Shown: positions 1 through 11,563, counted from the stretch's first letter. The stretch: DNA of 64,000 nt from an uncultured Gemmatimonadaceae bacterium (GCA_964598655.1 CAZRCT010000003.1:49006-113005), one strand, 5' to 3'. The notes: generated by a model not told the origin, from the sequence alone. Translations and numbers: made by a program.

Positions 1-318
1 CGCCAGCACCCGGTCCTCGATCTCGCGCGTGGCCCCGAGCTCCATGGTGAGCGGGAGGGCCACGGCCGAGATGGCGGTGAACACCATGCCCACCGCCACC
101 AGCCCCGGCACCACCACGGTGGCGTACCCGAGCCCCTCCGCCCCGCCGCCCACCGCGACCCCGCTCCCGATGGTGGGGAAGACGTAGGTGAAGACGAAGA
201 CGAACAGCAGCGGGTTCATCACCGTCCGAACCATGAGCGGGACGAAGTTGCGCCGGAGCACGGTGAGGTCGCGGAGCACCATGCCCCAGAGGGGGCGGAA
301 GGCGGGCGTCTCAGTCAC
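1..318 (-). CDS. ABC-2 type transporter permease, N-terminal part (gene runs off the left edge)
   Basis: The reverse-strand frame is open from a GTG at 318-316 to the window edge, overlapping the end of the upstream ATPase gene by 8 nt. My own translation, MTETPAFRPLWGMVLRDLTVLRRNFVPLMVRTVMNPLLFVFVFTYVFP..., is hydrophobic, as in permeases that follow DrrA-type ATPases. Confidence 0.7.
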   Translation of the reverse strand, partial: MTETPAFRPLWGMVLRDLTVLRRNFVPLMVRTVMNPLLFVFVFTYVFPTIGSGVAVGGGAEGLGYATVVVPGLVAVGMVFTAISAVALPLTMELGATREIEDRVLA

Positions 319-1255
319 GCAGTTCCCGTCCGGTGAGCTGGATGAAGACCGTCTCGAGCGTGGGCTCGTGGATGCGGAGGTCGGCGAGGCCGTAGGGGAG
401 CGCAGCTTCCACGATGGGTGGGATGAGCCCGTCGCGCGCCGTGGCGAGGACGCGGAGGCCCTGCTCGCCGCGCTGGACGGCGCGCACCTGCGGCAGGGCC
501 TCGAGCTGCCGCACCAGCGGCTCGTCGAGCCGCTCCAGGGTGAGCTCTACGATGGTGGCGGCCCCCACCTGCCGCTTGAGCTCGGCCGCCGTGTCGGTGA
601 CGAGCACCCGGCCATGGTCGATGATGGCCACGCGGTCGCTCAGGCGGTCGGCTTCCTCCATGTAGTGCGTGGTGAGGAGCACGGTGATACCCTGCGCCCG
701 GAGTCCGGTGATGAGCTCCCAGAGCGCCAGGCGACTCTGCGGGTCGAGTCCCGCCGTGGGCTCGTCGAGGAACAGCATGGACGGCCGGTGGGCGATGGCG
801 CGCGCCAGCTGCACCCGCTGCGCAAGGCCGCCCGAGAGCGTCTGCGCCATGGCCCCGGCGCGGTCGCTCAGGCGGAACTGCGCCAGCAGCTCCGTCGTCC
901 GCGCCGAGGCGTCGGCGCCACCCCAGCCGTGATAGCGGCAGTGGTAGTAGAGGTTCTCGAAGACGGTGCAGGCGCGGTCGAGCGTGTTGTACTGCGTCAC
1001 CACCCCGATGCGCTGCTTGACCCGCACCGGGTCCGTGGCCACGTCGATCCCGTCGAGCCGCACGGTGCCCGCGGTGGGGCGGACGCGCGTGGTGCAGATG
1101 CCCACCGTGGTGGTCTTCCCTGCCCCGTTGGGCCCGAGGAGGGCAAAGACCTCGCCGGGGTGGACGGTGAGGTCCACCCCGGCGAGCGCCAGCACCTCCG
1201 GCGGCCCCGCATAGCGGCGCGTGAGCCCGGCGATCTCGAGCGCCGCGGCGGTCAC
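311..1255 (-). CDS. ABC transporter ATP-binding protein (ABC-2/DrrA-like)
   Basis: 314 aa ORF with Walker A GPNGAGKTTT, signature LSGGLAQRV and Walker B MLFLDEPTAGLD. GTG start. Confidence 0.9.
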   Translation of the reverse strand: MTAAALEIAGLTRRYAGPPEVLALAGVDLTVHPGEVFALLGPNGAGKTTTVGICTTRVRPTAGTVRLDGIDVATDPVRVKQRIGVVTQYNTLDRACTVFENLYYHCRYHGWGGADASARTTELLAQFRLSDRAGAMAQTLSGGLAQRVQLARAIAHRPSMLFLDEPTAGLDPQSRLALWELITGLRAQGITVLLTTHYMEEADRLSDRVAIIDHGRVLVTDTAAELKRQVGAATIVELTLERLDEPLVRQLEALPQVRAVQRGEQGLRVLATARDGLIPPIVEAALPYGLADLRIHEPTLETVFIQLTGRELRD

Positions 1256-1265
1256 GCGCCGGGCC

Positions 1266-2357
1266 TCACGCCGGCTCGAACACCCGCTGGGCGCGGGTGG
1301 CCGCGTACTCGGCGCGCGCCCGGGCGACGGCGTCGATGAGCGGGCTCGGATCGAAGCGCACCGGGTCGGTGCAGGGAAGCCCGGTCTCGCGGCTGGCGGC
1401 CTCGCAGGCGGCGCGGGCCTCGGCCTCGGTCATGTCGTAGGTGTTGAGCGAGATGCCGATGGTCTTCGTGGGGTGGACGAAGCCGGCGACGCCCTCGTAC
1501 AGCTTCACGTACTCCGAGAGCGGCGGGATCTTGAGCCAGCCGGCCTTGCGGTAGTCACCGATGTAGTCGCGCGTGGCCTGGTGGCAGAGGATGAGCGCGT
1601 CGGGGCAGGAGCCGTGCAGCAGCCCGCAGGTGACGCCCGAGTAGCCCGGGTGGTTGAGGCTCCCCTGCCCCTCCACCAGCACGATGTCGGCGTCCTTGCT
1701 CCCCTCGAGCACCAGCCACTCCGCGGCGCCGGCGATGAAGTCGGCCACCACGGCGTCCACCGCGATGCCCCACCCCTCGATCATGATGCCGGTCTGGCCG
1801 GTCGCCACGAAGCGGGTGCGCAGGCCCCGCTCATTGAGCTTCTTCGTGATCTGCAGCTGGCTCGTCATCTTGCCGACGTTGCAGTCGGTGCCCACCGTCA
1901 GGATCACGAAGGGCTCGACGTGCTTGGCCTTGCCGCTTGCCACGGGAAGGTTGGCGGGGGGGCGGCGGAAGTCGTAGATCTCGGTCCCCCGCGCCTTGGC
2001 GCGCGCGGCGATGGCCGCGTCGTCCCCGATGAAGGTGTGGAGGCCGCTCCAGATGGAGCACCCGGCGTCCACCGCCTCGAGCAGCCAGCTGCGCCACTCC
2101 TCCGGCAGCTTCCCCCCCACCGGGGCGATGCCGATGAGCACCGCATCCGGCTTGAGCGTGAGCGCCTCCGTCATGGAGCCGAGCACGGGCGTGGCCCCGC
2201 CGAAGCCGAGGACGTCCTGGACCGTCTTGCCGGCGTGCTGCCGGTCGAGGACGGCCGCGATCCGCTCGGGACGGTAGCGGATCACGGAGTTCGCGGTCTT
2301 GGAGGTGAGCGGGCCGAACTCGCCATCGGCGAGGATCAGGAAGCGGGAGCCGTGCAT
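1266..2357 (-). CDS. DUF1611 family protein (DgcN-like putative N-acetyltransferase)
   Basis: The ORF track gives 1266-2411. I prefer the internal ATG at 2357 (MHGSRFLILADGEFGPLTSKTANSVIRY), which matches the usual N-terminus of DUF1611 proteins. Family assignment is from memory of the family sequence. Confidence 0.7.
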   Translation of the reverse strand: MHGSRFLILADGEFGPLTSKTANSVIRYRPERIAAVLDRQHAGKTVQDVLGFGGATPVLGSMTEALTLKPDAVLIGIAPVGGKLPEEWRSWLLEAVDAGCSIWSGLHTFIGDDAAIAARAKARGTEIYDFRRPPANLPVASGKAKHVEPFVILTVGTDCNVGKMTSQLQITKKLNERGLRTRFVATGQTGIMIEGWGIAVDAVVADFIAGAAEWLVLEGSKDADIVLVEGQGSLNHPGYSGVTCGLLHGSCPDALILCHQATRDYIGDYRKAGWLKIPPLSEYVKLYEGVAGFVHPTKTIGISLNTYDMTEAEARAACEAASRETGLPCTDPVRFDPSPLIDAVARARAEYAATRAQRVFEPA

Positions 2358-2436
2358 GGGGCGTCGGGAAAGGGGAACAGGGGCGCGCGGAACCGGCCGG
2401 TAAGCTACCACGGGCAGCGGCGGGAGGGAACGAGAC

Positions 2437-2484: not shown

Positions 2485-3255
2485 CTAGGCCTGCTTCCCG
2501 GGCTGGTCGTCGTCCACCAGCTCGGCGTCGATGGTGTCGCCGCGGCCGAGCTGGCGGGTCTCGCCGCCCTTGCCGCCCGGGCCGATGAGGCCCATCCGGG
2601 CCTTGAGCTCGAGCAGCTGCTGGTCGGGCGCGCCCTTGTACTCGAGGGCCTGGAACTGCTGCATCAGCTGGTCGCCCTCGAACTCGTTCTGCAGCTCGGC
2701 GGCGGCGATGGCCTTGCGCTCGTTCTGCTCAATCTTCTCGGTCATCCGCTCAAACGACTCGAAGGCCGACTTGTCGGACATCCCCGACATCGTCTCCTGG
2801 ATGCGCTGCTGCGCCTCCGCCCGCCGCGCCCGGGCAATGAGGATGTTCTTCTTGCGCTTGGCTTCCTCGATCTTGTCGTTGAGCTGGCGCAGCGAGGCCT
2901 TGAGGTTCTCGGTCTCCGCCTTGTGCTTCACCCAGGTCTCGTGGAGCTGCTGGGCGCCGGTCATGGCCTCGTTGTAGCGCATGAGCGCCTGCTTGGCCAG
3001 GTCGTCGCGGCCCTCCTGCACCGCGAGCATGGCGCGCCGCTCCCAGTCCTCGGCCTGCTTGCGCATGGCCTCGGCGTCGGCCTGGAGCTTCTTCTCGTCC
3101 GCGATGGCGCTGGCCACCTGCTGCTTGGCCTTGGCCAGCTGACCCTTCATGTCGATGATCAGCTGGTTCAGCATCTTCTCGGGATTCTCGGCGCGCGTGA
3201 TGAGGTCGTTGATGTTCGACCGGATCATCGTCGAGAGACGGTCAAAGATCCCCAT
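2485..3255 (-). CDS. pspA: PspA/IM30 family protein (phage shock protein A)
   Basis: 256 aa. The N-terminus MGIFDRLSTMIRSNINDLITRAENPEKMLNQLIIDM closely parallels E. coli PspA ([27 protein letters not shown]...). The rest is long coiled coil. Confidence 0.95.
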   Translation of the reverse strand: MGIFDRLSTMIRSNINDLITRAENPEKMLNQLIIDMKGQLAKAKQQVASAIADEKKLQADAEAMRKQAEDWERRAMLAVQEGRDDLAKQALMRYNEAMTGAQQLHETWVKHKAETENLKASLRQLNDKIEEAKRKKNILIARARRAEAQQRIQETMSGMSDKSAFESFERMTEKIEQNERKAIAAAELQNEFEGDQLMQQFQALEYKGAPDQQLLELKARMGLIGPGGKGGETRQLGRGDTIDAELVDDDQPGKQA

Positions 3256-3258
3256 GTC

Positions 3259-3651
3259 TTACTCCCGGAAGGGCGCCAGGGCGCCGAGGTGCGTGGCCAA
3301 CGCGAGCGTCAGGGAATCGAAGCTCGCCTCGAATTCGTTGAAGTCCAGGTTCTCCAGCTCCAGCGTGTCCACCAGCACCACGCGGTTGCCCTCGAGCCCG
3401 TAGGCGCCATGCACGAGGTCGCGGGCGTTGTACGCCAGGAGCGCGCGGAAGAGCGCCGCCTGCCGCTCCGCCCCCTCGGGCAGTTCCATGACGGCCACCC
3501 GCAGGATCACCACCGGCGGCGCGAAGTGTACCACCACCTCCGCCCCGGCGGTCGTCTTCACCAGCCAGAGGTTGGGCTCCACCTCGCTGACCTCGGCCGA
3601 GCCGCTGTCCAGCCGGTCGAGGAAATCCTCGATGTCTTCCTTGCCGCGCAT
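3259..3651 (-). CDS. YbjN / CesT-Tir chaperone-like protein
   Basis: The ORF track gives 3259-3681. The ATG at 3651 has GGGAGG 5 nt upstream. The alpha/beta pattern (LWLVKTTAGAEVVVHF...VVILRVAVMELPE...ALFRALLAYNARDLVHGAYGLEGNRVVLVDTLELENLD) is typical of YbjN-like folds. Assigned by resemblance only. Confidence 0.6.
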   Translation of the reverse strand: MRGKEDIEDFLDRLDSGSAEVSEVEPNLWLVKTTAGAEVVVHFAPPVVILRVAVMELPEGAERQAALFRALLAYNARDLVHGAYGLEGNRVVLVDTLELENLDFNEFEASFDSLTLALATHLGALAPFRE

Positions 3652-3698
3652 GCCTGCCTCCCGAATGGGGCCTGCCTGCAATCTAACCGGGGCCCGCG

Positions 3699-4022
3699 CT
3701 AGCGAGCCGCCGGCACCGCCTCGGGCGGGGTGTCCGCCTCGTCGTCCGCCCGGGGCGGCGCCACGAGCAGCCGCTCGGCGAACTCCAGCCGTTCCTCCAC
3801 CTCCCGCAGGCGGTGGGCCAGCGCGTCGAGCTCCTCCAGCCGCTCGGCCAGCAACTGCTCGGTCTCTTCCTTTTCCCGGATCGTCTGGTCGCTGCCGAAG
3901 GCCCCCATGATCCGCTCCGTGCCCCGCCCGATGGCCCGGCCGATGGGGCCGAGGAGCACCGCCACACTGATGGCGGCGGTCATCATCCAGAATCCGAGCG
4001 CGCCGATGCTGTCACCAAACAT
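3699..4022 (-). CDS. Array member 13: small TM + coiled-coil protein, ERLEFAERLL variant
   Basis: 107 aa with GGAGG 5 nt upstream of the ATG. Sequence: MFGDSIGALGFWMMTAAISVAVLLGPIGRAIGRG...REVEERLEFAERLLVAPPRADDEADTPPEAVPAAR. It shares the DEADTPPEA.PAAR tail with member 12. Confidence 0.8.
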   Translation of the reverse strand: MFGDSIGALGFWMMTAAISVAVLLGPIGRAIGRGTERIMGAFGSDQTIREKEETEQLLAERLEELDALAHRLREVEERLEFAERLLVAPPRADDEADTPPEAVPAAR

Positions 4023-4036
4023 GCCCGCCTCCGGGG

Positions 4037-4357
4037 TCAGCGCGCCGCCGGCAGCGCCTCGGGCGGGGTATCCGCCTCGTCGGGCAGTGCCAGCCGGTCC
4101 TGCCGTGTGAGGAGCCGCTCGGTGAAGTCGAGCCGCTCTTCCAATTCCACCAGACGGGATTCGCGGGCCTCCAGTTCCTGCATCCGGGCCCGCAGCTCCT
4201 CGAGTTCCGCCGGGGCCGCGGCGCCCGCACCGTGCTCGATCCGCCGGGCCCAGGCCACGACGAGCGGACGGACCAGGTACACCGCCGCACCGAGCATCAC
4301 GAAGCCCGCCGTCCCGGCGAGCAGCTGGTTCATCAGTTCCGGGGCAATCGCGAGCAT
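4037..4357 (-). CDS. Array member 12: small TM + coiled-coil protein, ERLDFTERLL motif
   Basis: The track ORF extends to 4396. The ATG at 4357 has GGAGG upstream and lies 1 nt after the member 11 stop. Sequence: MLAIAPELMNQLLAGTAGFVMLGAAVYLV...LVELEERLDFTERLLTRQDRLALPDEADTPPEALPAAR. Confidence 0.8.
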   Translation of the reverse strand: MLAIAPELMNQLLAGTAGFVMLGAAVYLVRPLVVAWARRIEHGAGAAAPAELEELRARMQELEARESRLVELEERLDFTERLLTRQDRLALPDEADTPPEALPAAR

Positions 4358-4358
4358 C

Positions 4359-4670
4359 TCAGCCTCCCCTCGGCAGCCGGGCCGCTTCATCGTCACGCTG
4401 GCGAGCCAGCAGGCGCTCGGTGAAATCCAGGCGTTCCTCGAGTTCGTACATCCGCGCCTGCTGGCCCTCGAGCTCCTGGACCCGGGCCCGCAGCTCTTCC
4501 ACCTCGACGCGGAGCGCGGGATCGGCGCCGCCCTCGGGCCCGCCGAGGCGCCGGCCCCAGCCCTGCATGACGGGCGTGAGCAGCCGGCTGCCGAGGAACG
4601 AGACGCCGAGCACCACCCCGATGAGGCTCATGGTCTCGCCCGGGCCCATCATGATCAGGCTCAGCAGCAT
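4359..4670 (-). CDS. Array member 11: small TM + coiled-coil protein, ERLDFTERLL motif
   Basis: 103 aa: MLLSLIMMGPGETMSLIGVVLGVSFLGSRLL...GWGRRLGG...MYELEERLDFTERLLARQRDDEAARLPRGG. Closest to member 10. Confidence 0.8.
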   Translation of the reverse strand: MLLSLIMMGPGETMSLIGVVLGVSFLGSRLLTPVMQGWGRRLGGPEGGADPALRVEVEELRARVQELEGQQARMYELEERLDFTERLLARQRDDEAARLPRGG

Positions 4671-4990
4671 CAGCCCGCCTTTCCCGGACCCAGCCGGCCC
4701 GGTTCCGCCTCACGCTGCTGCAGCAGCAGGCGCTCGGTGAAGTCCACGCGATCCTCGAGCTCGAGCAGCCGCTGCCGTTCCTCCTCGAGCTGCTGCAGGC
4801 GCGCCCGCATTTCCTCGAGATCCTCACGCAGGCGGGGGTCCGCCTCGCCGCTGTGACCCGCCAGCCGCCTGCCGATTCCCGTCATGATGGGGTGGAGCAG
4901 CTTGTAGGTCACGGTCATGGCGCCGAGGGCCATCACGGCGATGAGGATCCCCTCGCCGGGCCCCTGCAGCAGGACGAGCGCGAGCAGCAT
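4670..4990 (-). CDS. Array member 10: small TM + coiled-coil protein, DRVDFTERLL variant
   Basis: 106 aa: MLLALVLLQGPGEGILIAVMALGAMTVTYKLL...GIGRRLAG...LLELEDRVDFTERLLLQQREAEPGRLGPGKAG. Confidence 0.8.
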   Translation of the reverse strand: MLLALVLLQGPGEGILIAVMALGAMTVTYKLLHPIMTGIGRRLAGHSGEADPRLREDLEEMRARLQQLEEERQRLLELEDRVDFTERLLLQQREAEPGRLGPGKAG

Positions 4991-5361
4991 CAGTGCGGCC
5001 CTCCCGACTCAAGCCGGCTCACGTCCGCCTCCCGGTGCTGCACCAGCAGGCGCTCGGTGAAGTCCAGCCGCTCCTCGAGCTCAAGGACGCGGCCCTGCAT
5101 CTGCTCCAGCTCCGCCACGCGGGCCTGCAGGTCGGTGATCTCGTCCAGCGACGGTGGCGCCTCCCGCTGGGCGGCCAGCGCCCGGTTCCGGCGCCAGGCA
5201 AAGACGAACGTGGACAACGCGAAGATGCCGAGCACCACCTGGTCCTCGATCGCCGGGCCAGCCATCTCGGCGAGCATTCCCGCGAGGAAGCCGGTGGCCG
5301 TGAGGTGGATGATGACCTCCACGCCGTCCAGGCCCAGCGTCTGCTTGAGTCCCACGCTCAC
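4990..5361 (-). CDS. Array member 9: two hydrophobic segments + coiled coil, ERLDFTERLL motif
   Basis: 123 aa: ...VIIHLTATGFLAGMLAEMAG...VVLGIFALSTFVFAWRRNR...VLELEERLDFTERLLVQHREADVSRLESGGPH. ATGA overlap. Confidence 0.8.
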   Translation of the reverse strand: MSVGLKQTLGLDGVEVIIHLTATGFLAGMLAEMAGPAIEDQVVLGIFALSTFVFAWRRNRALAAQREAPPSLDEITDLQARVAELEQMQGRVLELEERLDFTERLLVQHREADVSRLESGGPH

Positions 5362-5717
5362 CCCTCCCCGGCTCCGAGACGTTCCGCCTCACGGTGGCGC
5401 ACCAGCATCCGCTCGGCGAAGTCCAGGCGCTCTTCGAGCTCGAGTACCCGCGCCTGCCCCTGCTCGAGCTCCGCCACCCGATCCTCGAGCTCCGCGACCC
5501 GCTGCGCCGCCACCTCCCCGGTGGTGTCGCCCCGCTCCAGGCCGGCGCGCCGGCGCCGCCACGCCAGCACCCCGAACGAGGCGAGGAACGCCACCGACAC
5601 GCCGATCTCCTCCTGCGGCTGGGTCATGGCGCTCAGCATGACGGCGGCCGCGATCGTGGCGCCCGACTGGATCAGGAAGTCGACGAAGTCGATCCCGACG
5701 TAGCGCCGGAAGCTCAC
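5358..5717 (-). CDS. Array member 8: two hydrophobic segments + coiled coil, ERLDFAERML variant
   Basis: 119 aa: ...SGATIAAAVMLSAM...IGVSVAFLASFGVLAWRRRRAG...VLELEERLDFAERMLVRHREAERLGAGEG. ATGA overlap. Confidence 0.8.
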   Translation of the reverse strand: MSFRRYVGIDFVDFLIQSGATIAAAVMLSAMTQPQEEIGVSVAFLASFGVLAWRRRRAGLERGDTTGEVAAQRVAELEDRVAELEQGQARVLELEERLDFAERMLVRHREAERLGAGEG

Positions 5718-6001
5718 GCGCCCCCCGGCCCGAGGCGCTCGGCCTCGCGCTGCTGGGCCAGGAGCCGCTCCGTGAAGTCCAGACGCTCCTCGAGCTCGGC
5801 CACGCGGCCGCGGAGGGCGTCCGAATCATCGAGGCGCGCCCGCAGGTCGGCGAGTTCCGCCTCGAGCTCGAGCGGGACGCCACCCTTGCCACGCTCCACG
5901 CGCTTGACCATGACGTTCACGAAGGCGATGACGGCATACACCGATGCCCCCGCCATGCCCATCCCGGCGAACACGCCGAACAGCTTGATGAACTCGTCCA
6001 T
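5714..6001 (-). CDS. Array member 7: small TM + coiled-coil protein, ERLDFTERLL motif
   Basis: 95 aa: MDEFIKLFGVFAGMGMAGASVYAVIAFVNVMV...VAELEERLDFTERLLAQQREAERLGPGGA. TGATG junction. Confidence 0.8.
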   Translation of the reverse strand: MDEFIKLFGVFAGMGMAGASVYAVIAFVNVMVKRVERGKGGVPLELEAELADLRARLDDSDALRGRVAELEERLDFTERLLAQQREAERLGPGGA

Positions 6002-6357
6002 CAGCCCTCCCCCGGCCGCAGGCGCTCCGGCTCCCGCTGCTGCGCCAGCAGCCGTTCGGTGAAGTCCACCCGCTCCTCCAGTTCCATGACCCGGTGCTGC
6101 AGTTGGTCCATCTCCGCGAGGCGGGCCCGCAGGTCCTCGACCTCCTGCCGCAGGGCACTATCCCCGGTGCCCTTTCCCTCGATTCGCCGCCCAAGCGCCC
6201 GCATCACGGGCCACAGGACCACCGTACACGCCGCCAGGAACCCCAGCGTGATCAGCAGGATCACGGGGGCGGGCATCACCTCCCACGGCGCCGGCGTGTG
6301 CGGGAAGTCCGGCAGCGGAGGCGGCTCCGGCACCTGGACCACAACTTGCCACATCAC
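6001..6357 (-). CDS. Array member 6: small TM + coiled-coil protein, ERVDFTERLL variant
   Basis: 118 aa with a Pro-rich N-terminal extension, then the TM helix PVILLITLGFLAACTVVLWPV, GRRIEG, and ...VMELEERVDFTERLLAQQREPERLRPGEG. ATGA overlap with the member 5 stop. Confidence 0.75.
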   Translation of the reverse strand: MMWQVVVQVPEPPPLPDFPHTPAPWEVMPAPVILLITLGFLAACTVVLWPVMRALGRRIEGKGTGDSALRQEVEDLRARLAEMDQLQHRVMELEERVDFTERLLAQQREPERLRPGEG

Positions 6358-6614
6358 GGCTCCCCTCCGGACAGCGACTCGCTCTCCCGCTTTGCGGTGA
6401 GCAGCCGCTCGGCGAAGTCCATGCGCTCGTGCAGTTCCGACACCTCGAGGCGCAGGCGCTCCACCTCCTCGAGCAGGGCCGGGTCGCCGGTCCCGGCCAC
6501 GCCCATGGGCCCGTGCCGGATCCGGTCGCTGATGGCCCGGCCGATGTCCGTCTTGGAAATGGCGATCAGCATGCCGCCACCAAAGACGATCAGGATGAAG
6601 AGGGTCCCCTCCAT
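6354..6614 (-). CDS. Array member 5: small TM + coiled-coil protein, ERMDFAERLL variant
   Basis: 86 aa: MEGTLFILIVFGGGMLIAISKTDIGRAISDRIRHG...LHERMDFAERLLTAKRESESLSGGEP. Closest to member 4. Confidence 0.8.
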   Translation of the reverse strand: MEGTLFILIVFGGGMLIAISKTDIGRAISDRIRHGPMGVAGTGDPALLEEVERLRLEVSELHERMDFAERLLTAKRESESLSGGEP

Positions 6615-6623
6615 CGGCGCCTC

Positions 6624-6875
6624 CTACTGCCCGTCGGGCAGTTGCTCGGCCTCGCGTCCGCGGGCCAGCAACCGCTCGGTGAAGTCCACCCGCTCCTGCA
6701 GCTCGGTCAGTTCCTGCCGCATCCGGTCCAGCTCCTCGTAGACCGCCGGGTCGCCCTCGGGGACCTCGCGGTGGCCGCGGATGCGGTCCGCGATCGCCTT
6801 GCCCACGGGGCTGAAGGAGATGGCGATGGCGGTGCCGCCGCCAAAGATCAGGATCAATGCGAGGATGTCTTCCAT
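6624..6875 (-). CDS. Array member 4: small TM + coiled-coil protein, ERVDFTERLL variant
   Basis: This is the C-terminal 83 aa of track ORF 6624-7154, starting at the ATG at 6875 (TGATG junction). Sequence: MEDILALILIFGGGTAIAISFSPVGKAIADRIRGH...LQERVDFTERLLARGREAEQLPDGQ. Confidence 0.8.
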   Translation of the reverse strand: MEDILALILIFGGGTAIAISFSPVGKAIADRIRGHREVPEGDPAVYEELDRMRQELTELQERVDFTERLLARGREAEQLPDGQ

Positions 6876-7147
6876 CAGGCTCCTTCTCCCGGCGTGCCGG
6901 ACCGGTCGCGGATCATCAGCCGCTCCGTGAACTCGAGCCGCTCCTGAGTTTCGGCGAGTTGCTGCTGCAGGCTCTCCATCTGCTCCCGCAGTGTCCCGAG
7001 GGCCGCCAGCACCTCGGGATCGGTCCCTGCCGCCGCCCGCCGCGCCTCGGTCTGCAGCCGAGTGATGGCCACGGCCCCCTTCATGATCAGACCGGTGATG
7101 ACCACGCCGCTCAGCATCCCGAGGATGGGAATCAGCTCGCCGGCCAT
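6875..7147 (-). CDS. Array member 3: small TM + coiled-coil protein, ERLEFTERLM variant
   Basis: 90 aa: MAGELIPILGMLSGVVITGLIM...AETQERLEFTERLMIRDRSGTPGEGA. Its start shares 1 nt with the member 2 stop (TGATG). Confidence 0.8.
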   Translation of the reverse strand: MAGELIPILGMLSGVVITGLIMKGAVAITRLQTEARRAAAGTDPEVLAALGTLREQMESLQQQLAETQERLEFTERLMIRDRSGTPGEGA

Positions 7148-7425
7148 CAGCCACCTCCCGGCAGGCGGTCGGGCGCCCTGCCTTGCGCCAGCAATCGTTC
7201 GGTGAAGTCCAGCCGCTCCTGCGTCTCCGCCACCTGGTGCTGCAGCTGATCCACCTGGTCCCGAAGCGCCTCGACGGCGGCGATCAGGTCGGGATCGGCA
7301 CCCGCCACCGCCTTCCGCCCCTCCGCCCAGCTGTGCGCGATACGGACCAGGCCGTAGGTCATGGTGCCGATCACCGCGATGCCGGTGAGCATGCCGAAGA
7401 CCGGCACGACCACCTCGGGGCCCAT
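7147..7425 (-). CDS. Array member 2: small TM + coiled-coil protein, ERLDFTERLL motif
   Basis: This is the C-terminal 92 aa of track ORF 7147-7740, starting at the ATG at 7425, 2 nt after the member 1 stop. Sequence: MGPEVVVPVFGMLTGIAVIGTMTYGLV...AETQERLDFTERLLAQGRAPDRLPGGG. Confidence 0.8.
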   Translation of the reverse strand: MGPEVVVPVFGMLTGIAVIGTMTYGLVRIAHSWAEGRKAVAGADPDLIAAVEALRDQVDQLQHQVAETQERLDFTERLLAQGRAPDRLPGGG

Positions 7426-7427
7426 CG

Positions 7428-7706
7428 TCAGCCTCGCGGCAGCTGCTCGGGCGTCCTGCCCTGCGCCAGCAGCCGCTCGGTGAAGTCGAGCCGTTCCTGC
7501 GTTTCCGCCAGCTCGTGCCGCACCCCGTCCAGCTCCTGCCGCAGGTCGGCCACCTCGCCCCGGAGGAGATCCACGTCGCCCCCGCCGCCGCCCGGGCCGG
7601 ACCGGATCCGGTGGGCGATGGCCTTCCCGATTTCCGAGCGGGAGATGAACACCGCCCCGACCGTCAGGAAGAACGTCATCGGAATCAGGACTTCGGGTCC
7701 GGACAT
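7428..7706 (-). CDS. Array member 1 of 13 (transcription order): small TM + coiled-coil protein, ERLDFTERLL motif
   Basis: The ORF track starts at a TTG (7721). The ATG at 7706 has GAGGCCGAGG upstream and aligns with member 2 (MSGPEVLIPMTFFLTVG vs MGPEVVVPVFGMLTG). C-terminus: AETQERLDFTERLLAQGRTPEQLPRG. Confidence 0.8.
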   Translation of the reverse strand: MSGPEVLIPMTFFLTVGAVFISRSEIGKAIAHRIRSGPGGGGGDVDLLRGEVADLRQELDGVRHELAETQERLDFTERLLAQGRTPEQLPRG

Positions 7707-7827
7707 CCTCGGCCTCGGCAACTTGTGGGAATCGGATCACCCGTGTGGCACCCTGCGGTCCACCAGGGTCAGGGCAGTACGGAGAGATGTTTCAGCCTGT
7801 TTCATAGGCTGACAGGCCAGTTTCCGG

Positions 7828-8715
7828 TCAGTTCTTGGACTTCCCCTTGATCTGGACCAGCCGCTCCCGGGCCAGCTTCCGGCCGGTGGGGGTGGCGGCC
7901 AGGCCGCCCCCGGCGGTCTCCCGGTAGCGGACATCCATGCTCCGGCCGATCTCCCCCATGGTGTCGATGACCTCGTCCACGGGGATGGGGAAGCGGACGC
8001 CGGCCAGTGCCATCTCGATGCCGGCGAGGGCCATCGCGGCCCCGGTGGCGTTCCGGTAGACGCACGGCACCTCGACCAGCCCGCCGAGCGGGTCACAGAC
8101 GAGCCCCAGGGTGCCCTGCATGGTGAGCGCGACGGCGTGGACCGCCTCCTCGGGTGTGCCCCCCAGCAGCTCGACCCCCGCGCCCGCCGCCATGCCAGCC
8201 GCCGCCCCGGTTTCCGCCTGACAGCCGCCTTCGGCCCCGGACAGCGAGGCCCGCACGGCCACCACGGCCCCGATGAGGCCGGCCGTCGCGAGCGCCCGCA
8301 CGAGGGCCTCGTCCGTGACCTGCCGATGACCGGCCAGCCCAAGCAGCACGCCCGGGAGCACACCGGCCCCACCCGCCGTGGGGGCGGCGACGATCACGCC
8401 CATGGCGGCGTTCACCTCCTGCACTGCCAGCGCCCGGGCGATGGCGTCGGTGAACACGGTGCCGGCGAGAGGGCCGCGGGCGTGGGTCATCCGGTTGGCG
8501 TCGCCGCCGACGAGGCCGCTGACGCTCTTGAAGTCACCGGGGAGGCCCTGGTCCACGGCGCCACGCATCACCTTGAGCGCCCGCGTGAGCGCCGCCTCCA
8601 CTTCCGCGCGGCTCCGGAGCCCGGCGTCCACCTCGGCGCGCAGGGCCACCTCGCCGAGCGAGATGCCGTCGCGCTCGGCCTCGGCGAGGGCGTCGGCCAG
8701 GGCGGTGATCCTCAT
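7828..8715 (-). CDS. sdaAA: L-serine ammonia-lyase (iron-sulfur dependent), alpha subunit
   Basis: 295 aa, Gly/Ala-rich SDH_alpha-type sequence. It follows the beta subunit directly with a 4-nt overlap. Confidence 0.9.
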   Translation of the reverse strand: MRITALADALAEAERDGISLGEVALRAEVDAGLRSRAEVEAALTRALKVMRGAVDQGLPGDFKSVSGLVGGDANRMTHARGPLAGTVFTDAIARALAVQEVNAAMGVIVAAPTAGGAGVLPGVLLGLAGHRQVTDEALVRALATAGLIGAVVAVRASLSGAEGGCQAETGAAAGMAAGAGVELLGGTPEEAVHAVALTMQGTLGLVCDPLGGLVEVPCVYRNATGAAMALAGIEMALAGVRFPIPVDEVIDTMGEIGRSMDVRYRETAGGGLAATPTGRKLARERLVQIKGKSKN

Positions 8716-9377
8716 GCGATCCTCGGGATGGAGCGGAGGAAGCGGACCGCCGAGAGGGCGCGGATGGCCTGCATGGCCTCCTCGCTGGCGGGGCGGTCCA
8801 GTTCGTAAATGTGGATGGCGTCGCCGCCCTTCTTGGCGCGGCTCACCTTGAGCGTGGCGATGTTGTCGCCCTGGCGGGCGAGGGCTCCGGTCACGGAGGC
8901 CACGATGCCCGGGGTGTCCTTGGCCACGAAGACCAGGGCCGGGAAGGCGCCGGTCACTTCCACCCCGTAGCCATCGATCTCGGTGATCTGGATGCGGCCC
9001 GCGCCGAGGGAGGCGCCCACCACCACGGCCTTCCGGCCGTCGCGCACCAGGGTGAGGCGCGCGGTGTTGGGGTGGTGCTCACCGCGGAGCTTGGTGTTCT
9101 CGAAGGTGAGCTGGACGCCGGCCTGCTCGGCCAGCTCGAGGCTCTGGCGGAGGCGCTCGTCGTCGGGATGGAAGCCGAGGAGGCCGCCGGCGATGGCGCG
9201 GTCGGTGCCGTGCCCGGTGCCGGTGCGGGCAAACGACCCGTGGAGCTCCACCAGCGCCGTCTCCGGCTGCCCGCCGGCCAGCTCGCGGGCAAAGAGCCCG
9301 ATCCGGCAGGCCCCCGCCGTGTGCGACGACGAGGGACCGACCATGACCGGGCCAATGATGTCGAGGAGGGAAACCAT
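8712..9377 (-). CDS. sdaAB: L-serine ammonia-lyase, beta subunit (with ACT-like C-terminus)
   Basis: 221 aa. The N-terminus MVSLLDIIGPVMVGPSSSHTAGACRIG is the conserved SDH_beta start. Confidence 0.9.
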   Translation of the reverse strand: MVSLLDIIGPVMVGPSSSHTAGACRIGLFARELAGGQPETALVELHGSFARTGTGHGTDRAIAGGLLGFHPDDERLRQSLELAEQAGVQLTFENTKLRGEHHPNTARLTLVRDGRKAVVVGASLGAGRIQITEIDGYGVEVTGAFPALVFVAKDTPGIVASVTGALARQGDNIATLKVSRAKKGGDAIHIYELDRPASEEAMQAIRALSAVRFLRSIPRIA

Positions 9378-9709: not shown

Positions 9710-11563
9710 TCACCCGATCATGGCGATGAACCCGTCCCCGGCGTCGGGGCGCGGGGGTGGCGGCGGCTCGGGCGGGGGTGCAGCCCCGAAGACCTGGGCC
9801 GACCGGATGTTGGCCTCGATCGCGGTGAGCATGCCCTCGATCTCCTCCAGCGCCTTGCGGAGGGCGAAGGGGTACGCGAGCCGGTAGCCCATCAGGCTGA
9901 GGCCCCCCAGCACGGCCGCGCCGCCCAGCGCCGGGAGGGCCGCGAGGGCCCCAAGGCCGAGGGCGGCAAACCCCACGGCCCCACCGACGGCGGCGCCCCC
10001 GGCAGCCACGCTGCCGGCGATCCAGTAATCGACGACGAGGTTCTTGCGCAGGCCGGGGCGGAGGTCGCCGTAAACGGTCACCTCGGTGCCACCGCCGCCG
10101 GCCGCGACGGGGTGCAGGGTGACGTTGAGCTGGAAAGCCTCCAGCTGGTACATGCGGTAGGTGAAGGGCGTGTACGACTCGAGGGTGCCCGCCCCGGAGA
10201 GGCCGCCCTTCATGAAGTTGGGCACCTCGAACACCAGCACCCCGCCGCTGAACGGATGCCCCCCCACCGTGTCGCGCAGCCGGAGGAGGTAGGGGCGCGC
10301 CGTGACCACGCGTCCCATGGCCTCGAGGGTGACCTTGGGGCTGGCCTTGATGCGGCGCGAAACGGAGAAGCTCCGCTGCTCGGTGCCAAGGAGCCGGGTG
10401 ATGCGCCGATCCTCGCGCGTGCCGCCGGCGGGCACCGGCCGGCCCGGGGCCCGGTCGCCCGGCTGCTCGGCGAGCGCCAGCGCCACAAACTCCGGCGCGA
10501 TGCCCACCTCGGCCGCCGCCAGCTCCACGTCCTTCAGCCGGTAACCGCCCGTCGGCAGCGAGGGCGAGATGCCGGTGAGCCCGCCTTCCTGCGAGCGGAG
10601 CTGGAGCCGGGTGGCCGCCTCCGCCTGCAATTGCGCCGCCCGGAGCCAGATGGCCTGCGCCTGGTCCTCGGCGATGACGCGGTCGGCGGACGTGACGGCG
10701 GCCAGCTGGGTGGCCGACCGCTCCAGCGCGAGCGCCAGCGCCTCGGCGAGCGCTTCGCCGGTCATGAAGCGCGCCTCCGGCTCGCGGGCCAGGCAGCGGT
10801 CGATCACCTCGACCAGCGGGCGGGGCACGGTGGTGGTCAGGCTGGCGAGGGACGGGGCCTGCCGGCTCGCCACGGCCACGAGCACCGCGGCGGCGTTGTC
10901 GCCCTCGAAGGGGAGGCGGCCGGAGAGCGCATAGAAGCCGGCGACGCCGAGCGAGTAGAGGTCGCTCCGGCCGTCGAGGGGCTGGCCGTTGGCCTGCTCG
11001 GGGCTCATGTAGTGGACCGTGCCGACGACCTCCCCCTGCTGCGTGAGAGACGAGGCCGACTGGTCCCGCGCGATGCCGAAGTCCGTGACCACCGCCCGCC
11101 CGGTGGCGCGCTCCACCATGATGTTGGCGGCCTTGATGTCGCGGTGCACCACGCCGCGCGCGTGCGCGTACGCCAGCGCCCACGCCGCCTCCCGGAGGAT
11201 CCGCACCACCTCCTGGGGCGGCAGCGGCCCGCGGTCGCGCACCCGCTCGGCCAGGTTCTGGCCGTCGATGTAGGCCATGGTGAAGTACGCGAACCCGCCC
11301 ACCTCCTCGGCCCGGTAGATCGGGACGATGTTGGGATGGGAGAGCTGGGCGGCAGTGCGGGCCTCGCGGAGGAAGCGCTCCCGCACGCCCGGCAGCGCGC
11401 CGAGGTGGGGCGGCAGCACCTTGATGGCCACGGGGCGCTCGAGGCGCGCCTCGCGGGCCAGGTACACCACGCCCATGCCGCCCCGGCCAAGCTCGCGCTC
11501 GAGGGTGTACTGGCCCGCGAGCAGCGGGGCGAGCTGTTCAAGGATCGCGTCGGGCGAGGTCAT
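9710..11563 (-). CDS. Ser/Thr protein kinase with large C-terminal extension and C-terminal membrane helices
   Basis: 617 aa with Hanks kinase motifs (GRGGMGVVYLA, AIK, HRDIKAANIMV, DFGIAR, SPEQ). Gly/Ala-rich hydrophobic segments lie near the C-terminus. Confidence 0.9.
   Translation of the reverse strand: MTSPDAILEQLAPLLAGQYTLERELGRGGMGVVYLAREARLERPVAIKVLPPHLGALPGVRERFLREARTAAQLSHPNIVPIYRAEEVGGFAYFTMAYIDGQNLAERVRDRGPLPPQEVVRILREAAWALAYAHARGVVHRDIKAANIMVERATGRAVVTDFGIARDQSASSLTQQGEVVGTVHYMSPEQANGQPLDGRSDLYSLGVAGFYALSGRLPFEGDNAAAVLVAVASRQAPSLASLTTTVPRPLVEVIDRCLAREPEARFMTGEALAEALALALERSATQLAAVTSADRVIAEDQAQAIWLRAAQLQAEAATRLQLRSQEGGLTGISPSLPTGGYRLKDVELAAAEVGIAPEFVALALAEQPGDRAPGRPVPAGGTREDRRITRLLGTEQRSFSVSRRIKASPKVTLEAMGRVVTARPYLLRLRDTVGGHPFSGGVLVFEVPNFMKGGLSGAGTLESYTPFTYRMYQLEAFQLNVTLHPVAAGGGGTEVTVYGDLRPGLRKNLVVDYWIAGSVAAGGAAVGGAVGFAALGLGALAALPALGGAAVLGGLSLMGYRLAYPFALRKALEEIEGMLTAIEANIRSAQVFGAAPPPEPPPPPRPDAGDGFIAMIG

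Follow-up and report, generated by a model that had tools for sequence, protein, structure and literature searches.

The stretch of DNA considered here, called the window below, comprises 64,000 nucleotides (nt) with a G+C content of about 72% from an uncultured Gemmatimonadaceae bacterium (GCA_964598655.1 CAZRCT010000003.1:49006-113005), and our subject is an array of small genes that fills its positions 3699-7706 exactly. The array consists of 13 open reading frames (ORFs) that run head to tail on the minus strand and encode products of 83-123 amino acids (aa); directly 3′ of it, on the same strand, lie a gene for a CesT/Tir-like protein and pspA, the gene of the bacterial ESCRT-III protein PspA/IM30, which are 3 nt apart from each other. 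In our view the 13 genes probably encode an old family of small inner-membrane proteins that expanded in tandem, shares one operon with PspA and serves as a set of anchors or sensors for it, the number of copies having grown by unequal crossing-over; the evolutionary part of this explanation, taken alone, can be held with considerable confidence.

Layout of the array and common plan of its products

Positions are counted over the whole window and members are named m1 to m13 in the direction of transcription:

m1, 7428..7706, minus strand: 92 aa, begins MSGPEVLIPM...; front member
m2, 7147..7425, minus strand: 92 aa, begins MGPEVVVPVF...; reciprocal best pair with m3
m3, 6875..7147, minus strand: 90 aa, begins MAGELIPILGML...; overlap of 1 nt between its start and the m2 stop; younger copy
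m4, 6624..6875, minus strand: 83 aa, begins MEDILALILIFGGGTAIAIS...; the most widely conserved type of the family
m5, 6354..6614, minus strand: 86 aa, begins MEGTLFILIVFGGGMLIAIS...; in an orthologue group sister to that of m4
m6, 6001..6354, minus strand: 117 aa, also in public gene calls; its ATG at 6354 overlaps the m5 stop
m7, 5714..6001, minus strand: 95 aa, begins MDEFIKLFGVFAGMG...; only the C-terminal half is common with m6
m8, 5358..5717, minus strand: 119 aa; two-helix hairpin version, ...LAWRRRR
m9, 4990..5361, minus strand: 123 aa; two-helix hairpin version, ...FAWRRNR
m10, 4670..4990, minus strand: 106 aa, begins MLLALVLLQGPGEG...; lineage-specific pair with m11
m11, 4359..4670, minus strand: 103 aa, begins MLLSLIMMGPGET...
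m12, 4037..4357, minus strand: 106 aa; tail DEADTPPEALPAAR
m13, 3699..4022, minus strand: 107 aa; tail DEADTPPEAVPAAR; terminal member type

Successive genes from m1 to m13 are separated by 2, -1, -1, 9, -4, -1, -4, -4, -1, -1, 1 and 14 nt, and -4 and -1 are also the commonest distances over all related loci, a set of 79 found by scanning species-representative genomes (labels such as L001 below refer to this set). Most starts therefore overlap the preceding stop, and the genes are translationally coupled. Shine-Dalgarno sequences of the GGAG/GGAGG type stand at 204 of the 326 coupled junctions in all related arrays, often within the Gly/Glu-rich tail codons (LPGGG, PGEG, GGEP, GGG) of the preceding gene, and the conserved protein tail may thus be in part a constraint at the nucleotide level. 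Gene callers returned the identical 13 lengths in four independent public assemblies carrying identical proteins, which shows that the array is no artefact of assembly or ORF calling.

All 13 products follow a common plan. A short acidic N-terminus (MED, MEG, MSGPE and similar) is followed by a transmembrane helix, the only hydrophobic helix of each member save m8 and m9, which have two; m6 additionally carries, ahead of this helix, a proline-rich N-terminal extension of ~30 residues that is predicted to be extracytoplasmic. Behind the membrane helix come a basic juxtamembrane stretch of the type P-[IV]-G-x-A-I-A-x-R-I-R-G, a Gly-rich linker and a C-terminal helix of roughly 45 residues, or about four to five heptads, with the near-invariant ending E-L-E-E-R-[LV]-D-F-[AT]-E-R-[LM]-L, around which hydrophobic positions recur with a spacing of 3-4 (-19, -16/-15, -12, -9, -5, -2, +2, +5 and +9). 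An AlphaFold2 model of m11 built on 118 homologues (mean predicted local distance difference test score, pLDDT, 84) places helices at residues 10-42 and 51-98, joined by a linker. Across 409 family members the mean number of Lys and Arg residues flanking the transmembrane helix is 0.30 before it and 3.01 after it, and 90% of the members obey this polarity; by the positive-inside rule, the asymmetry predicts an N-out/C-in topology that would place the conserved helix on the cytoplasmic side, where PspA is.

No known family claims these proteins. Scans with Pfam, NCBIfam and PADLOC placed none of the 13 members above any model's threshold; a Foldseek search of the PDB with the AlphaFold2 model gave no match, and a sequence-profile search of the PDB gave nothing below E=0.04, leaving the family without a solved relative. 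The searchable literature describes neither the motif strings nor Gemmatimonas in connection with PspA, envelope stress or ESCRT-III. Nor does the cytoplasmic helix mimic a helix of PspA itself, as comparison with a 55-sequence PspA alignment by hhalign returned a probability of 0.07%.

Relationships and ages of the copies

An earlier note on this DNA had described the array as six adjacent pairs plus one member, produced by stepwise tandem duplication and sub-functionalisation. The shared motifs on which it drew are all present: AETQERL[DE]FTERL and the M(S)GPEV/MAGE N-termini in m1-m3, ME..L..LI.FGGG..IAIS....G.AI.DRIR in m4/m5, ERLLAQQRE.ERL in m6/m7, two hydrophobic helices with AWRRRR/AWRRNR in m8/m9, MLL.L....GPGE and G.GRRL.G in m10/m11, and the DEADTPPEA.PAAR tails in m12/m13. 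Its central observation, that nearest relatives sit next to each other, also stands: in global pairwise alignments the best-scoring relative is the immediate neighbour for 12 of the 13 members, the exception being m6, which best matches m10. Because 200,000 random orders gave a mean of 2.0 such matches and a maximum of 11 (P<5e-6), the observation is real and far from chance, and the farther apart two members stand in the array, the lower is their similarity (Spearman -0.47, p=2e-5). Same-strand, head-to-tail homologues with neighbours as nearest relatives are what defines a tandem gene family, and the pattern, being textbook for such families, is unsurprising in itself.

The scheme of six pairs plus one survives in part. 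Reciprocal best pairs over the whole length are 2/3, 4/5, 8/9 and 10/11, and the remaining pairs hold over half the length only. When the halves are scored separately, 1/2, 6/7 and 12/13 pair in the C-terminal half only and 10/11 in the N-terminal half only, and for nine of the 13 members the nearest relative differs between the two halves. The front member is itself composite in this sense: the N-terminal half of m1 (ISRSEIGKAIAHRIR) is of the m4/m5 type and closest to m5, its juxtamembrane stretch resembles that of m4/m5, and its C-terminal half resembles that of m2. Such discordance implies that chimeric copies arising from unequal crossing-over, or domain-specific constraint, form part of the history.

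How old are the copies? A neighbour-joining tree was built from 88 members of eight genomes (the window and seven others; 300 bootstraps). In it, m4 and m5 each belong to an orthologue group spanning all eight genomes, with bootstrap values of 92% and 90%, and the two groups join at 76%. Orthologue groups also form around m6 (77%) and m1 (73%), the two-helix members make up a clade (67%), and m7 groups with orthologues from L001, L003 and L037 (82%); only m10 and m11 are sisters within the window (72%). A wider comparison used 56 complete arrays with PspA, namely 52 that have PspA within 1.5 kb downstream (2-13 copies, median 6) and the few whose PspA ORF overlaps the last member. The m4 type is found in 49 of these 56 arrays and the m6 type in 42, and in 43 of them m4 has a closer relative than m5; for m3, m10, m11 and m12, the 56 other arrays hold no closer relative than the member's own paralogue in the window (m2 in the case of m3). 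Taken together, the cross-species groups and these counts indicate that tandem duplication went on over a long time: the m4/m5, m1, m6 and two-helix types are old, predating the species splits, and m2/m3, m10/m11 and m12 are lineage-specific. Stepwise duplication is thus borne out insofar as the neighbour pattern is the one that single-gene duplication yields; it was not one recent series, as the copies differ greatly in age.

Order has been kept as well as identity. With the members of other arrays assigned to their best match in the window, m1-like proteins have a mean relative position of 0.16, m4-like proteins of 0.45, m6-like proteins of 0.58, two-helix m8-like proteins of 0.77 and DTPPE-tailed m13-like proteins, which come last, of 0.94; orthologues of m1 head the array in L001, L003, L004, L008 and L002. 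Two arrays end in an extra, degenerate last member (L001, 13948-14187; L020, 12388-12645; …GPIGRAVARWIEARTPQAHGQLMAELAELEGRVNRLERLL…) that keeps the juxtamembrane motif and has lost the D-F-x-E-R core, and the window has no room for one between m13 and the CesT/Tir-like gene.

Neighbours in the array are either sister copies or members of sister orthologue groups, and there is no trace of gene conversion homogenising all copies, neither as a long identical DNA tract nor as a pair with a low proportion of synonymous differences (pS). Paralogues and orthologues alike have pS values of 0.35-0.58 (0.38-0.58 in every adjacent pair), the plateau expected with 91% G+C at third codon positions. Synonymous sites are hence saturated, which makes the ratio of nonsynonymous to synonymous rates (dN/dS) for the N- versus C-terminal halves uninformative, and no low-pS adjacent pair exists to signal recent duplication or conversion. 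One tract did invite scrutiny: the tails of m12 and m13 (4039-4082 and 3701-3744; DEADTPPEA[LV]PAAR) share 93% of their DNA over 44 nt, compared with roughly 65% elsewhere in the two genes. Gene conversion was rejected here, as the same core DNA occurs in L001, whose two tails differ by a similar amount; conservation of the DTPPE peptide between species, together with codon bias, accounts for the tract. Since other species, too, keep D-T-P-P-E at the C-terminal end of their last array members, the peptide may be a short functional motif in its own right.

The copies have diverged chiefly at the membrane. Paralogues in the window are on average 28% identical in the N-terminal (membrane) half and 49% in the C-terminal half, and orthologues show the reverse, with membrane halves that are 69% (m1), 82% (m4) and 70% (m5) identical and C-terminal halves that are lower, at 58-66%. 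Membrane segments that are specific to each paralogue and conserved among orthologues, mounted on a common cytoplasmic module, are the trace expected of differentiated function. The data thus show long-term retention of copies in a conserved order; sub-functionalisation in the strict sense, as the earlier note had proposed it, is not proven by paralogue-specific conservation.

Could the copies instead be redundant, the array being a device for dosage or the neutral outcome of unequal crossing-over, and supplying many equivalent PspA anchors with no division of labour? Related genomes do differ in copy number (2 to 14), all copies have the same cytoplasmic half, and m3, m10, m11 and m12 are lineage-specific additions, all of which would suit this explanation. 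Redundancy, however, should have led to loss or homogenisation of copies, and the latter is not seen; the m1, m4, m5, m6, two-helix and DTPPE-tailed types have been kept as separate orthologue groups in conserved order across species, and the contrast between orthologous and paralogous membrane halves just described is hard to reconcile with equivalence. We therefore consider redundancy unlikely.

The operon, its putative promoter and its relatives

The genes and elements that surround the array in the window are the following:

311-2411, minus strand: DUF1611 P-loop protein and ABC-transporter ATPase, downstream of pspA
2485..3255, minus strand: PspA/IM30 (bacterial ESCRT-III), 256 aa; Pfam PspA_IM30 2.1e-48, NCBIfam PspA 3e-41
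3259..3681, minus strand: CesT/Tir-like (YbjN-like) chaperone-fold protein, 140 aa; Pfam CesT_Tir_1 2.1e-28
7778..7804, minus strand: promoter-like element of the extracytoplasmic function (ECF) sigma type, TGAAACAGGCTGAAACATCTCTCCGTA; -35 TGAAAC, 17-nt spacer, -10 CGTA
7828-9377, minus strand: serine dehydratase beta (ACT-domain) and alpha subunits, upstream of the array

The family is large and, as far as the scanned loci go, confined to one lineage, all 79 coming from Gemmatimonadota/Gemmatimonadales genomes. Same-strand arrays of 2-14 copies occur across these loci, which puts the 13 of the window at the top of the range; PspA lies downstream of every multi-copy array with enough flank, and a CesT/Tir-like gene stands between array and pspA in about half of the loci. 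Over 7,000 clusters at 90% identity match a profile of the 13 proteins, as do, at 50% identity, 3,131 representatives with E<=1e-3 (778 with E<=1e-10), almost all of 85-135 aa. In the sources these go by the name of 'hypothetical protein' (metagenome-assembled genomes of Gemmatimonadales) or, at the Joint Genome Institute (JGI), 'Tfp pilus assembly protein PilO'. Three loci with a single copy (L044, L059 and L071) have no neighbour in common, the genes around them including those for a beta-lactamase-fold protein, an M24 peptidase, a GH43/F5_F8 protein and DoxX; in L044, an ECF sigma gene lies 1.3 kb upstream of the isolated family member, on the opposite strand. Fused forms are also found. 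In L004 (10837-11451) an m5-type and an m6-type member form one ORF of 204 aa with two family domains, and the databases hold two further long proteins, P0263 (262 aa, matched in four stretches) and P0001 (196 aa); these may be natural fusions or else frameshift or assembly errors.

A gap of 121 nt separates m1 from the serine dehydratase alpha gene, and the promoter-like element falls within it. The pattern TGAAAC-N16/17-CGTA has its sole occurrence in the 64 kb at this site (0.02 expected), and an alignment of the upstream regions of six relatives contains TGAAACA, TGxAAC and CCGTA as invariant blocks. Among 63 arrays, 38 (that of the window included) have TGAAAC-N15-18-CGT[AC] within 260 nt upstream of the first array gene, a match for which we estimate, from base composition, a chance frequency of less than one per thousand loci. 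ECF promoters have the consensus -35 tgaAAC and -10 CGTA, as in the ECF/sigma-W promoters of B. subtilis (PMC5758882), and the window element, a putative promoter, matches the sigma-W consensus. TGAAAC recurs exactly 10 nt further downstream (TGAAACAnnnTGAAAC), and the resulting direct repeat, conserved in the closer relatives, might also serve a response regulator as a binding site that overlaps the promoter. Scans for E. coli-type sigma-70 promoters and for terminators yielded nothing useful, and Rfam recognised no RNA family anywhere in the window.

Several described PspA systems resemble this one, each in some respects. Membrane partners of PspA are PspB/PspC in proteobacteria, LiaI in Firmicutes and PspM in actinobacteria (PMC11237479). 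PspB, a sensor or anchor that engages PspA, is likewise a small bitopic inner-membrane protein (~75 aa) with an N-out orientation and a charged cytoplasmic C-terminal helix, encoded in the pspA operon, the topology of our family being predicted from one hydrophobic 17-mer and the charges on either side of it; duplicated PspB genes within one operon have been noted (PMC11237479). The array differs in lying upstream of pspA and in having 13 copies rather than one or two, the E-R-L-D-F-x-E-R-L-L motif is absent from PspB, the promoter is putatively of ECF type rather than under sigma-54/PspF control as in pspABC, and no product of the array operon matches PspC or PspF. Membership of the PspB family (PF06667/TIGR02976) can be rejected, since the best match of any window member has E=0.018 and 15 bits against a cut-off of 51.7; among 118 family members, Pfam PspB matches 19, none below E=0.0028.

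The actinobacterial PspM (Rv2743c, of the clgR-pspA-pspM-pspN operon) is a membrane partner of PspA restricted to one lineage, and its two transmembrane helices recall m8/m9; it is about 220 aa long, single-copy and without the motif, and the match of m9 to its model NF047839 (E=0.0039, 17 bits) falls far below the cut-off of 80. In B. subtilis the pspA-ydjGHI operon is sigma-W controlled, and YdjG/YdjH anchor PspA and are needed for its membrane foci (PMC8581546). The likeness lies in a pspA operon under an envelope-stress ECF sigma factor, such control being predicted here, and in the promoter consensus TGAAAC...CGTA; YdjG, YdjH and LiaI, by contrast, have unrelated folds (zinc ribbons, TPM domain, multi-helix) and are single-copy and downstream of pspA, and the window locus has no SPFH/band-7 protein. 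Alike in gene order is the CesT/Tir-PspA dyad (Ravi et al. 2024, mSystems, PMC11237479), a CesT_Tir_1 gene immediately upstream of a same-strand pspA, which is precisely the arrangement here. The dyad contexts described there are band-7/flotillin with an AAA+ ATPase, spermine-synthase-type and polyamine/ATP-grasp operons; they have no array of small bitopic coiled-coil proteins, and Gemmatimonadota are not mentioned.

A candidate role with PspA

What might so many small membrane proteins do beside one pspA? The operon would be an envelope-stress unit switched on by an ECF sigma factor, and from within the membrane the small proteins would anchor PspA or act as sensors for it, in the manner of PspB/PspC, LiaI, PspM or YdjG/YdjH. 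Their cytoplasmic coiled coil, with its ERLDF(T/A)ERLL face, may recruit, hold or release PspA, and the CesT/Tir-like protein possibly mediates or chaperones this contact. Each copy would owe a different specificity, or input, on the membrane side to its diversified membrane and periplasmic parts. The array itself would have grown by single-gene unequal crossing-over over a long period, leaving some chimeras, with the differentiated copies retained. Gene order, topology and analogy tip the balance slightly towards a PspA-adaptor role of the family.

A number of points weigh against this proposal. The proposed link to PspA is read from gene order, topology and analogy; the array stands upstream of pspA, unlike pspBC, whose place is downstream; and about half of the loci lack the CesT/Tir-like gene, which therefore cannot be a required link. 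The range of 2-14 copies means that many of them are dispensable in some lineages, and single copies also exist away from pspA, beside unrelated genes (at ~9960-10330 in each of L044, L059 and L071). The promoter motif was not found in 25 of the 63 arrays, and no ECF sigma gene lies within the window or beside the operon in other loci. Likeness to PspB is itself diffuse: TIGR02976 gives sub-threshold matches in 80 of the 118 members (best E 2.3e-4), but GspM does so in 82 and CcmI in 71, and E. coli PspB itself matches the GspM model. With GspM and CcmI as frequent as PspB, such matches reflect the architecture of a transmembrane helix plus a charged helix. Direct comparison of the family with a PspB alignment by hhalign gave a probability of 6%, in a test made weak by the low diversity of that alignment (effective sequence number 1.35), so that a remote homology is still conceivable.

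Alternatively, the array may have a function of its own and be merely co-transcribed with pspA, its products forming a hetero-oligomeric scaffold like FtsB/FtsL, PilO or GspM, or acting as membrane-perturbing peptides that PspA counters. The existence of single family copies without pspA, the PilO label that JGI gives to many members and the sub-threshold matches to GspM, CcmI, MtrG and FtsL-like models would all be in keeping with this. Yet identity with PilO or GspM (PF04350/PF04612) does not hold up: Pfam PilO matches only 5 of the 118 members, at E>=0.048, and T2SSM only 4, and the proteins are too short for a periplasmic ferredoxin-like domain. The bulk of PilO and GspM is periplasmic, unlike the conserved helix here, which the charge distribution predicts to be cytoplasmic; no pilus, secretion (including type II secretion system) or division genes occur in the operon or nearby, PADLOC finds no match, and PspA follows every multi-copy array. 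We judge an independent function to be quite improbable.

That the minus-strand ORFs are a high-G+C artefact or a repeat, the real coding frame being on the other strand, has a negligible chance of being right, for although DNA of 72% G+C gives long ORFs in several frames, plus-strand ORFs of 230-350 aa overlapping the array among them (e.g., 3813-4856 and 4853-5641), only the minus-strand products are conserved (in 3,131 representative proteins, and in 79 syntenic loci always in the same frame and orientation relative to pspA), start/stop coupling, Shine-Dalgarno sequences and the identical independent gene calls all fit them, and the AlphaFold2 model of one is confident, which leaves the long plus-strand ORFs as high-G+C noise.

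The reading of the array as a set of PspA anchors or sensors can be carried further, into more doubtful territory. It is conceivable, if speculative, that in Gemmatimonadales a combinatorial set has taken the place of the one or two membrane partners that PspA has elsewhere: up to 13-14 different transmembrane 'heads' would share a common cytoplasmic coiled-coil 'handle', co-assemble by way of its heptad helix into mixed membrane platforms that nucleate or restrain the ESCRT-III-like PspA polymer, and each report a different membrane or envelope defect or a different client, making the whole an ECF-switched, multi-input sensor array for one membrane-repair effector.

The CesT/Tir-PspA dyad and the stress system are known; new is a still unnamed multi-copy family of candidate membrane partners of PspA that extends across Gemmatimonadales and stands behind a putative ECF-type promoter. 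The way in which PspA/Vipp1, the bacterial ESCRT-III proteins, are brought to damaged membrane has been worked out only in a few model organisms, each with a different small partner. The locus adds about 3,100 clusters (50% identity), tagged 'hypothetical protein' or wrongly 'PilO', and ties them to pspA in an order that is widespread in soil and water; what is unusual about them is the many differentiated copies built around one common cytoplasmic motif. A new family model would be justified and would end the mis-annotation of thousands of proteins. If the proteins are indeed PspA adaptors, the ERLDF(T/A)ERLL helix would be a candidate PspA- or chaperone-binding peptide, and the variation in copy number, from 2 to 14, would amount to a natural experiment on the inputs that a membrane-repair system needs.

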